Shown piece by piece: positions 59,728-63,613 of a stretch of DNA of 64,000 nucleotides. The DNA lies in the sequence record OP745617; one strand, written 5' to 3'. This DNA comes from Escherichia phage F13. A program made the translations under genes and the position numbers. Each line of letters begins with the position of its first letter. Position 1 is the stretch's first letter. The notes under the pieces were generated by a model that worked only from the letters and a program-made list of their open reading frames with translations, was not told the origin of the DNA and did not search any database.

Positions 59728-59860
59728 TTGTCCTTTGTGGGTGATATGAGAAGTATAATAGCTAAATTATTTTACAGCAACAAGTCATTTCTATTTAGTA
59801 CAGACGAAAAAGACCCACAACAAGTGTGGGTCAATTACCGCTATATAACCGTCCTACAGG

Positions 59861-60706
59861 TTATTCCGCTTGATCACCGTCTTCGGCATTGTCGTTGGAT
59901 TCAACATCGACAAACTCGATGTGGCCCATCTCTTCCAGCTTGCTCAGGTAGGAGCGAACGGAAGCGCCAAACAGTTGATCTTTAACTTTTTCGCCCAGCT
60001 CATCGATAGACTGCGCCACGCCAACTTCGCCTTCTTTGATCGCCGCCAGAACGCGTCCACGGGTGGAATGCTCTTGCGGCTGGCTCAGGCCATTGCCGGT
60101 GTAGATGAAGTGAGTGGCTTTTGCACGACGCTGACCGTTTGCCTTTTTAGCAGCCTTGCGCTCTGCGATGGCTTTGCGACGTTCTTCAGCTTCTTTCTTA
60201 CGCTGTTCTTTCTGCTGTTCTGCAGCTTCTTTAGCCGCAATCTTAGCAGCTTCACGCTCTGCCTTGCGTTTCGCTTTAGCTTCTTCTTTGGCCTTCTCTT
60301 TTTCGGCCTTCGCTGCAGCACGGGCTTGATCACGCTCTGCTTTCTTGGCCGCAGCCTGCTCAGCTTTCAGGCGCTTGGCTTCTTCTTTAGCCTTTGCCTT
60401 TTCGATTTCTTTTGCTGCTTTAGCGGCTTCACGCTCTGCTTTCTTAGCAGCAGCCTTTTCTGCACGCTCTTTAGCTTTCTTAGCTGCTTCTTCAGCACGC
60501 TTCTGCGCCTTCTCATCAGCAGCCTGCTTGCGTTTCAGCGCAGCTTCTTCACGCTTGGCTTGTTTTTCCTGCTCACGCTTCTGGCGCTTCTCTTCGGCTT
60601 CTTTCTTTTTAGCCAGGCGTTTTTCTTCAGCCACGCGACGACGTTCTGCTGCGGCTGCTTGTTTTTCTTCTTTAGATAATACTTTGATTGCTTCGGCCAT
60701 ATTCAC
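59861..60706 (-). CDS. Lys/Ala/Glu-rich low-complexity protein with C-terminal globular domain
   Basis: 281 aa; about 190 aa of KEA-rich helix then about 80 aa of ordinary sequence; opposite-strand ORF is a shadow. Confidence 0.5.
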   Translation of the reverse strand: MNMAEAIKVLSKEEKQAAAAERRRVAEEKRLAKKKEAEEKRQKREQEKQAKREEAALKRKQAADEKAQKRAEEAAKKAKERAEKAAAKKAEREAAKAAKEIEKAKAKEEAKRLKAEQAAAKKAERDQARAAAKAEKEKAKEEAKAKRKAEREAAKIAAKEAAEQQKEQRKKEAEERRKAIAERKAAKKANGQRRAKATHFIYTGNGLSQPQEHSTRGRVLAAIKEGEVGVAQSIDELGEKVKDQLFGASVRSYLSKLEEMGHIEFVDVESNDNAEDGDQAE

Positions 60707-60859
60707 AGTCCTTAAATAAATTAGTTTATTTTATATTCCCCGTTTGGGATAACTTAATTATGCCTTCAGTTGCCGCCAGTAGCAACTAAAAACTATGGCG
60801 GCAATGCCACTTTAATTAAACTGATTTTCAGTTTTATTTTTCGTAAATTTACGTCAACA

Positions 60860-62530: not shown

Positions 62531-63613
62531 ATGGCTAGTTTAAGAGAAGAAGCAAAAATAATTGAAGAGTTTTTAACAGAACTCCAGAGAGGCATCCCAG
62601 AAGATGAGCGCGTCATGACGGTGTTTGCTCCTGAAGCAACGGTGCAGACTGACGAGCGCGGAAAGAAGATTAACAGCAGCTTCTGGCCTAAGCCTTGGAA
62701 GTTGGGCAAGCCGCTCATGCAGCACCAAAACGGCTATGCTTGCATCAGTTCAATGCGTAAGTCTCCCAACCCAAAGACGGGTGAGATGCGATACTGGCGT
62801 ACAGAGTCGGCCTTTGGTCACGGTATGGCGATGATGGTCGACGACATCGGTCACGGTAAAGGGTCCAAAGGCGATTTAGATTTGGAATTCTTTTTTGAGC
62901 GACTGAAGCCGACTGTCATCGTCGAGACTTCACCGAACAACCACCAGCTTTGGTACTTCTTTAAAGAACCGATTGACCATCTTATTCAGTTCAAAGCGTT
63001 CCTTGGGTCTTTCGTTAACATGGTACTCAAGAAGGGCGGCGACAACACGATTAAAGACGTAACGCGCGTGGGCCGTGTTCCTGGGTGCATCAATAACAAG
63101 CGTGTGACTCACGACGGCCCCTATAAATATGTCGATGAGAACGGCGACCCGTTCCGCTGCCGACTTGTCCATGCAGACTACTCCTTGCGCTACACCATCG
63201 AAGACATTTGTCACGCATTTGGCTTTCACGTCGTCATGCCGCAAAAGCGTGAGATTCAAATTGACGTCGATGAATACAAGTATGATGCCGTTTGGTATAA
63301 AATAGCCCAGCAGATTCTGGCGCGCAACAAGATGGGTGAAGGGTCTGATGGCGACGTCATCGAGAATATGTCAGGCAAGTGCCGCATAATCTGTCCTTGG
63401 GGTGAAGAGCACACCAACGGCGACCCGTATGGCGCGTACTTTCGCGGCCCTATCCCTGGTGCAGAACATGAATTTGTGTTCGGTTGCGCCCACGACTGTC
63501 ACCGGAAAGGGGAAGGCAAGAAAGGTTGGACTGCTTTTGTTGAAGCAATCGTCATGCCTTATATTGAGAATCAACTTGACATGATAAATCGTCGTGCAGG
63601 TGGCATAAAATAG
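62531..63613 (+). CDS. primase-like protein (AEP / prim-pol-like core with C-terminal Cys/His cluster)
   Basis: 360 aa; acidic MMVDDIG, ETSPNNHQLWYFF, RVGRVPGCINNK, and CPWGEEH...CAHDCH. Confidence 0.45.
   Translation: MASLREEAKIIEEFLTELQRGIPEDERVMTVFAPEATVQTDERGKKINSSFWPKPWKLGKPLMQHQNGYACISSMRKSPNPKTGEMRYWRTESAFGHGMAMMVDDIGHGKGSKGDLDLEFFFERLKPTVIVETSPNNHQLWYFFKEPIDHLIQFKAFLGSFVNMVLKKGGDNTIKDVTRVGRVPGCINNKRVTHDGPYKYVDENGDPFRCRLVHADYSLRYTIEDICHAFGFHVVMPQKREIQIDVDEYKYDAVWYKIAQQILARNKMGEGSDGDVIENMSGKCRIICPWGEEHTNGDPYGAYFRGPIPGAEHEFVFGCAHDCHRKGEGKKGWTAFVEAIVMPYIENQLDMINRRAGGIK

Follow-up and report, generated by a model that had tools for sequence, protein, structure and literature searches.

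A predicted basic-ridged long helix and winged helix in a lineage-specific protein encoded next to the helicase of PB1-like phages

In yeast CAF-1, the KER region forms a single α-helix (SAH) 128 Å long, which has the usual SAH composition plus "a stripe of basic residues" (PMC10335832). It is a non-specific binder of double-stranded DNA (dsDNA), has a length preference, and works together with a winged-helix domain of the same chain; a five-residue deletion that shifts the helical phase abolishes its function, and the acidic ED region of CAF-1 masks the winged helix (PMC10335832). Its authors describe it as first-in-class and, at 90 residues, as the longest known SAH; it is the only solved helix described with such a stripe, and it binds DNA, whereas the single helix of myosin 7a does not (PMC10335832). 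Here, we describe a gene in a 64,000-nucleotide stretch of DNA from Escherichia phage F13 (OP745617; hereafter, the window), the 279-residue product of which is predicted to contain a long helix with a basic ridge, followed by a winged helix and an acidic tail. This architecture, in a lineage-specific, helicase-linked and expressed gene, has good support. The family to which the protein belongs is uncharacterised and widely mis-annotated. CAF-1 KER with its winged helix is the closest working analogue, as an analogy of mechanism and not as evidence of homology.

The first 190 residues of the protein are composed of 30% Ala, 24% Lys, 21% Glu, 11% Arg and 6% Gln, together 92%, with no Pro and a net charge of +25. 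The other 89 residues have an ordinary composition and a net charge of −7. The best 150-residue stretch of the protein reaches 95% in these five amino acids, compared to 49% for the runner-up and a median of 30% among the 89 open reading frames (ORFs) of at least 100 residues in the window, and this bias is therefore far beyond chance. An earlier note, made from the DNA sequence alone, had described about 190 residues consisting almost only of Lys, Ala, Glu, Arg and Gln and had expected them to form one long charged helix. The composition is as described, and the helix is reproduced by an AlphaFold2 model of the full-length monomer (built from a 10-sequence alignment), in which it is continuous between the short N-terminal head and the linker (Table 1). 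Neither a helical hairpin nor a coiled-coil fold-back was predicted for the monomer, and PDB sequence searches with the helix gave no match.

The charges along this region are strictly ordered. Their Fourier spectrum has a peak at a period of 3.65–3.7 residues (11/3), with a harmonic at 2.2; the peak has a z-score of about 12–13 against composition-preserving shuffles and lies above the maximum of 200 of them. The sequence can be written as 17 unbroken 11-residue repeats of constant phase over residues 1–187, in which positions 1, 5, 8 and 9 are Lys or Arg in 44 of 68 cells and acidic in only two, and positions 0, 2, 3, 6 and 7 are Glu or Ala. When the repeat is drawn as an 11/3 helical wheel, its basic positions fall within one arc of ∼100°, so that a near-straight basic ridge would run for ∼26 nm along the predicted helix, the remaining surface being Ala/Glu. 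Enrichment of like charges is seen at i+7, i+8 and i+11 (z 3.2–4.1), and opposite charges at i+3/i+4 are only mildly enriched (z 1.4–1.8). Only 7 of the 176 helix residues are large hydrophobics. A hendecad coiled coil is not supported: the 11/3 periodicity is present, but the hydrophobic core positions (a, d, e and h) were not found. At the DNA level there is no 33-bp tandem repeat, and synonymous codons for Ala, Lys and Glu are mixed; the 11-residue pattern is therefore upheld at the protein level. A charge periodicity of 22–23 residues, matching the pitch of DNA, is absent, and long-period power lies below that of the shuffles, so the charge is evenly spread.

Over its whole length (residues 1–279), the protein matches positions 14–271 of the 294-position profile of phrog_4765, a phage family of unknown function in PHROGs (E = 1e-83), and no family was assigned in Pfam, NCBIfam or PDB sequence searches. 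The family is very small and confined to PB1-like phages, including Pbunavirus, Wifcevirus and Myosmarvirus, among others. With the C-terminal part as query, tblastn found a family member in ∼355 phage records: 293 from Pseudomonas (mostly Pbunavirus), 26 from Escherichia, 9 from Serratia, 6 each from Burkholderia and Xanthomonas, 3 from Pantoea, and smaller numbers from other hosts, including an Aeromonas phage. When 1.84 billion representative proteins were scanned exhaustively with HMMER, only 27 clusters were returned, and in all of them the domain is C-terminal and lies behind a charged, Ala-rich region. Word-indexed searches for distant relatives or other architectures yielded only fragments and family members.

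Nearly all of ∼30 homologs show the same 3.7-residue charge period (z 8–19). In the family-wide repeat profile, which was phase-fitted per sequence and is hence partly circular, positions 1 and 5 are 65–66% basic and 3% acidic, and no position exceeds 9% large hydrophobics (Leu, Ile, Val, Met or Phe) or 42% Ala. Counted back from the conserved RR.KATH motif, the ridge keeps its phase across the family (circular R = 0.8), even though helix length varies widely, from about 30 to about 260 residues. The far end of the helix is also variable. Many members have a His-rich head, e.g. MSHGHHHHTQDAGHTHG or HDHQHNHQHNHE, in place of the short N-terminal head (P0006, P0008, P0009, P0010, P0012, P0015, P0020, P0022, P0024, P0025 and L019:3185-4327), a composition that suggests metal binding or pH sensing at this end. 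The window protein and close relatives, e.g. L007, L009 and P0005, have a small [IV]xVKSKE motif in common instead.

The earlier note had also recognized a C-terminal domain of ∼80 residues. A globular domain is indeed predicted, but it does not account for the whole region, which divides into a basic linker, a 68-residue winged helix and a 15-residue disordered acidic tail. A separate model of residues 161–279, with a predicted local distance difference test score (pLDDT) of 77, shows the three helices and the β-hairpin wing of a winged helix in canonical order. A Foldseek search against a viral library returned only members of the phrog_4765 family itself. Thus far, the domain is best described as a predicted generic winged-helix fold without family assignment. 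Across 36 diverse members, R191, R192, T196, S206, Q209, S212, R214, R249 and K254 are invariant or nearly so. R249 and K254 are located on the third helix, which carries an invariant ...VRSYLSKLEEMGH..F motif and is the putative recognition helix, as the third helix usually is in winged-helix domains. R214 and S212 are at the N-terminus of the first helix. Positions of the R214/S212/R249/K254 type are typical phosphate contacts in winged-helix/DNA complexes generally. The C-terminal tail is acidic in nearly all homologs, with a net charge of −3 to −15.

The gene is located in the replication module, as the earlier note had proposed, among genes for a Dda-like helicase, a RepB-type primase, ThyX, a polynucleotide kinase (PNK)-like protein and DNA polymerase. 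Gene order was compared in Wifcevirus; Pbunavirus phages Ab28, 14-1, SCUT-S1 and JG024; Serratia phage KKP 3709; Pseudomonas phage tabernarius; Aeromonas phage Gekk3-15; and three divergent metagenomic phage contigs of 68–73 kb. The direct 5′ neighbor is a Dda-like (RecD/Pif1-type) helicase gene in every genome examined, even where the downstream genes differ; the spacing is interrupted only by a 71-residue ORF in metagenomic contigs L027 and L028 and by a 68-residue ORF in L031.

The gene is real and its protein is made. The ortholog of phage vB_Eco4M-7 (vBEco4M7_83, a 31.1-kDa "TolA protein", the locus of which we confirmed in the record; 98.2% nucleotide identity) was detected by liquid chromatography-tandem mass spectrometry in CsCl-purified particles with 7 peptides, 25.8% coverage and a score of 1198, compared to 1112 for the portal protein (PMC7048862). 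The concern in the earlier note that the ORF might not be expressed is thereby removed. Trypsin should cut the Lys/Arg-rich helix into very short pieces, so a coverage of 26% would be near the possible yield of the C-terminal third. Among the 31 proteins identified in Pbunavirus SCUT-S1 "ghosts", particles stripped of their DNA by LiCl and DNase, there was a trace of helicase but not the homolog gp69 (PMC6521218), and the absence of gp69 from DNA-free ghosts fits a DNA-associated protein. The vB_Eco4M-7 particles contained further high-scoring products from outside the annotated morphogenesis genes, namely _70, _71 and _77, the last of these a "glyoxalase family protein" with 8 peptides and a score of 718 (PMC7048862, Table 1 therein), and the preparation of phage ECML-117 also yielded a FabG-like reductase (PMC7048862). 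Either such preparations carry proteins of the infected cell, or Wifcevirus virions package a set of non-structural proteins.

Our best reading, which we hold tentatively and at somewhat less than an even chance, is that of a non-specific DNA-binding architectural protein that acts on phage DNA and is possibly retained in the virion. The DNA-binding role put forward in the earlier note is plausible, and is now better grounded in the predicted winged-helix fold, with invariant Arg, Lys, Ser and Gln residues at and near the putative recognition helix, and in the family-wide basic ridge. We envisage an abundant, lineage-specific protein of four parts (the head, the ∼176-residue helix, the winged helix with its preceding RR linker, and the acidic tail) that would bind dsDNA irrespective of sequence. 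Contact with the DNA backbone would be made by the winged helix and the RR linker, and the basic ridge of the helix would run along the same or a neighboring duplex, with a footprint or spacing of up to ∼26 nm. Helix and winged helix may cooperate, by analogy with the KER and winged-helix domain of CAF-1. The acidic tail could fold back and mask the winged helix, or it could recruit a partner. The protein would act during replication or packaging of phage DNA; as an ortholog co-purifies with virions, some copies may remain on the genome.

Several observations weigh against this reading. In most homologs, the net charge of the helix region is only +4 to +16, and that of the entire protein spans −11 to +20, with several homologs being net negative; judged from the sequences, the conserved feature is the basic ridge and not polycationic character. 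Conservation of the ridge phase is supportive, not conclusive, since it may partly reflect shared ancestry. The long helix appears to be dispensable in at least one lineage: P0031 (L031:5001-5351, on the 70.7-kb metagenomic contig ERZ27252442 k141_5270930) has 116 residues, of which only ∼30 are helical, yet retains the winged helix and a short acidic end at the same locus, with no charged ORF nearby. This member therefore indicates that the winged-helix core would be the indispensable part. Foldseek found nothing significant in the PDB, the best E-value being 0.3. The ECML-117 homolog was detected only weakly, with 2 peptides and a score of 3.2 (PMC7048862). Finally, the mass spectrometry data are compatible with a protein that travels with DNA but equally with sticky carry-over, which is possible because further non-structural proteins were detected in the same preparations.

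The main rivals are a protein–protein adaptor role and a purely virion role. As a replisome adaptor or spacer, the protein would use its winged helix to bind a partner (e.g. the adjacent Dda-like helicase, a primase or host single-stranded DNA-binding protein, SSB), as the winged helices of RPA32C and kleisins do; its acidic tail would act like an SSB tail, and the rigid helix would be a mere spacer or ruler. We consider this unlikely. The constant association with the helicase gene, which such a role would explain, may be plain inheritance within one phage lineage. A pure spacer does not need a basic ridge of conserved phase, a fixed ruler is not compatible with the variation in helix length, and no conserved second domain is found at the far end of the helix, where the heads are short and belong to two or more unrelated types.

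A somewhat smaller probability is given to a virion component: instead of serving replication, the protein would be packaged with the genome or beside it, as an internal protein of the head or as an assembly factor. The score of the vB_Eco4M-7 ortholog, above that of the portal protein, and the weak detection in ECML-117 speak for it, as do the "structural protein" labels in the records of JG024, KTN6, Ab28, SCUT-S1, tabernarius and XcP1. These labels, however, could not be traced to primary data: no proteomic evidence for them is given in the papers on JG024 and KTN6, and the 14-1 transcriptome paper does not discuss the gene. Moreover, the morphogenesis genes are far from this gene, which is part of the replication module, the SCUT-S1 ghosts lack the protein even though they retained a trace of helicase, and the portion of the cryo-electron microscopy text on phage Pa193 available to us does not mention it.

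A bolder version of the DNA-binding reading, to which we give a lower chance again, is a genome-coating factor that is loaded onto replicating DNA beside the helicase, packaged into the capsid and co-injected. If this were true, the protein would be a tailed-phage functional counterpart of linker histones or adenovirus protein VII, in which a basic-striped single helix of 26 nm, longer than any other of its kind, would serve as a ruler or bundler for DNA. The incoming genome could be protected or organized by the protein, which might also have a share in the very fast replication cycle that has been reported for Wifcevirus phages (cited in PMC11990801).

It is improbable that the protein handles single strands, replacing a missing phage SSB and working with the Dda-like helicase. 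The gene adjoins that of the helicase, and no SSB is annotated in the carefully annotated replication module of the relative Bas99. The acidic tail resembles those of T4 gp32, T7 gp2.5 and E. coli SSB, which recruit partners. The missing SSB annotation is weak evidence, however, because more than 60% of the genes are unannotated. No SSB match was obtained in Pfam, NCBIfam or PHROG, the predicted fold is a helix plus winged helix and not an OB fold, and the fold searches give no pointer to single-stranded DNA binding.

Least credible is a protein that spans the envelope like TolA, or one that binds membranes as an amphipathic 11-mer protein of the apolipoprotein, α-synuclein or LEA type, since the "TolA protein" annotations, a composition resembling TolA domain II and the 11-residue periodicity common to class A amphipathic helices are outweighed by a TolA match that vanishes on composition correction, by a different charge period, by the lack of a transmembrane segment, signal peptide or TolA domain III, and by the lack of a hydrophobic face, the few large hydrophobics being concentrated at no repeat position.

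The features of the gene and the neighboring ORFs discussed below are collected in Table 1. A 2.6-kb stretch around the gene is 100% identical to Escherichia phage vB_EcoM_SP13 (Wifcevirus, OP352608.1), where the gene is an 840-nucleotide coding sequence (CDS) labelled "hypothetical protein", and 95–99% identical to 27 further Wifcevirus records. A longer frame (59861..60706), beginning with GTG, is also present. From the sequence, translation likely starts at the ATG at 60700 and not at the GTG at 60706, because the AAGGA lies 8 nucleotides upstream of the ATG (2 nucleotides for the GTG) and because the CDS in SP13 has 840 nucleotides. The intergenic gaps are unusually long on both sides of the gene. 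The promoter match sits within the 159-nucleotide gap following the helicase gene, and a comparable σ70-like match, again by consensus only, is found upstream of the Serratia KKP 3709 homolog. Terminator-like hairpins occur at the equivalent place in Pbunavirus Ab28 and Serratia KKP 3709. GC skew around the locus tracks only the direction of transcription and is no guide to a nearby replication origin.

Table 1. Features of the gene and of neighboring ORFs (positions in the window)
Feature	Coordinates	Strand	Remarks
CDS, 279 residues + stop codon (59861-59863)	59861..60700	-	SP13_071, phrog_4765
N-terminal head, residues 1–9 (MAEAIKVLS)	60674..60700	-	pLDDT <50 for residues 1–8
Single long α-helix, residues 10–185, ~26 nm	60146..60673	-	predicted by AlphaFold, pLDDT 82–97
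Basic linker, residues 186–196 (KKANGQRRAKA)	60113..60145	-	non-helical in both models; family-invariant RR
Winged-helix domain, residues 197–264	59909..60112	-	predicted; strand, helix, strand, helix, helix, strand
Disordered acidic tail, residues 265–279 (DVESNDNAEDGDQAE)	59864..59908	-	pLDDT <50 for residues 268–279
Shine-Dalgarno AAGGA	60709..60713	-	read in the sequence; spacing suits ATG at 60700, not GTG at 60706
σ70-like promoter match, TTGCTA-17-CATAAT	60757..60785	-	consensus scan, 9/12 positions; consensus match only
Strong intrinsic terminator, 8-bp stem GACCCACA/TGTGGGTC then TTTTTCGTCT	59802..59832	-	~30 nucleotides past the stop codon
Opposite-strand stop-free ORF, 269 residues	59870..60679	+	rich in Phe, Leu, Ser and Cys
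Immediately downstream gene, 331 residues	58732..59727	-	phrog_4828 (function unassigned)
ORF, 148 residues	58220..58666	-	signal-peptide-like beginning MKRITGIALAATAILGTMYMEA
RepB-type prim-pol	62531..63613	+	PF16793, E = 4e-36
PNK-like protein, 290 residues	56534..57406	-	N-terminal PNKP-type HAD phosphatase domain (PF25109)

The stop-free ORF opposite the gene could be mis-annotated by gene callers, but is a compositional mirror of the GCN/AAR/GAR codon bias and not a gene. The immediately downstream protein begins with a Rossmann-type GGGLAGL dinucleotide-binding motif, has no Pfam or NCBIfam match, and is called "UDP-galactopyranose mutase" in phage Mansfield; it could be a nucleotide-, sugar- or DNA-modifying flavoenzyme. 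Its gene is found at the equivalent position in the examined Pbunavirus phages, Aeromonas Gekk3-15 and the metagenomic relatives, but not in Serratia KKP 3709 or Pseudomonas tabernarius. The 148-residue ORF has no Pfam, PHROGs or NCBIfam match, and a secreted or periplasmic protein would be unexpected in the replication module. The C-terminal half of the 290-residue PNK-like protein matched only phrog_4889 ("polynucleotide kinase/phosphorylase"), and the stop of its gene overlaps the start of the upstream thyX. The lineage has two different primases, the RepB-type prim-pol and a separate primase/helicase (SP13_079, outside the window; L001:1547-3217), as well as a PolIII-alpha-type polymerase with a separate epsilon-like exonuclease; in the relative Bas99, neither an SSB nor a clamp is annotated.

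Pbunavirus phages are among those most used in Pseudomonas therapy, and their E. coli relatives, the Wifcevirus phages, were isolated only recently, with an engineered E. coli K-12 laboratory strain as host (PMC11990801). Growth of Wifcevirus on this host should make genetic work feasible. The gene is conserved across the whole lineage and systematically mis-annotated as "TolA", "structural protein" or "head morphogenesis protein". The helix would offer a natural molecular ruler and could help to explain how phages organize replicating or packaged DNA, and the minimal member P0031, a natural control, would show what the long helix adds. If the protein does not bind DNA, it would still be a clear example of an 11-residue charge pattern that selection has kept up along ∼180 residues without a repeat at the DNA level.

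Of the comparisons suggested in the earlier note, that with histone H1 tails fails and that with TolA is compositional only. TolA domain II is likewise an Ala/Lys/Glu-rich, long helical, low-complexity region, and an uncorrected alignment with it has 48% identity over 193 residues. However, the composition-corrected BLASTP comparison with E. coli K-12 TolA has E = 0.18, and 1e-32 is reached only with correction and SEG off, and the charge period of TolA is 7.2, compared to 3.65 in the phage protein. The N-terminal membrane anchor and the C-terminal TolA-III domain of TolA are both missing from the phage protein, which ends in a predicted winged helix; its N-terminus (MAEAIKVLSKEEK) contains no hydrophobic segment, transmembrane segment or signal peptide, and the protein has no Pfam TolA match. 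Judged from these sequence comparisons, the "TolA protein" labels of FEC19, vB_Eco4M-7, Ro157lw, MTx, BcepF1 and Gekk3-15 are compositional artefacts. With linker histones H1/H5 and the bacterial H1-like proteins (Hc1, AlgP and the HupB tail), the phage protein shares the pairing of a winged-helix globular domain with a long Lys/Ala-rich region. H1-type tails are Pro/Ser-rich, nearly free of acidic residues and disordered, whereas the charged region of the phage protein is N-terminal, contains 21% Glu and no Pro, is predicted to be helical, and is near-neutral in most homologs. No Pfam match to the linker-histone globular domain was found at E-values up to 10, and H1 globular domains appear only among non-significant Foldseek matches (1uss, E = 3.5; 9ipu_I, E = 6.8; probability ≤0.10). 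Weak hints of kinship with YejK/NA37 (Pfam NA37 in 3 of 12 members, best E = 0.0091; PDB YejK, E = 0.66) did not survive an hhalign comparison with E. coli YejK, which gave a probability of 4%.

The classic ER/K single helices (myosin 6/7a/10 and caldesmon) are likewise highly charged and lack a hydrophobic seam. The phage helix differs from them in being dominated by like charges at i+7, i+8 and i+11, which produce the basic ridge, and in its 30% Ala. The 11-residue-repeat helices (group 3 LEA proteins, apolipoproteins, α-synuclein and right-handed hendecad coiled coils) share the 11/3 period that gives straight stripes, and the repeats of group 3 LEA proteins are likewise rich in Ala, Lys and Glu; in contrast, the phage helix has no hydrophobic face or core positions and is joined to a winged helix. 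The basic stripe of CAF-1 KER has a direct counterpart in repeat positions 1, 5, 8 and 9 of the phage helix. A winged helix in the same chain and an acidic segment are also shared, and the helical phase that matters in CAF-1 is conserved in the phage family. The order of the domains differs, the phage protein has no PIP boxes or histone-binding function, and the Cac1 winged helix was not among the top fold matches. The phage helix, at 176 residues, is about twice as long as the 90-residue KER, Ala-rich, and built of strict 11-residue repeats; next to CAF-1 KER, it would be the first of its class from a virus or bacterium.

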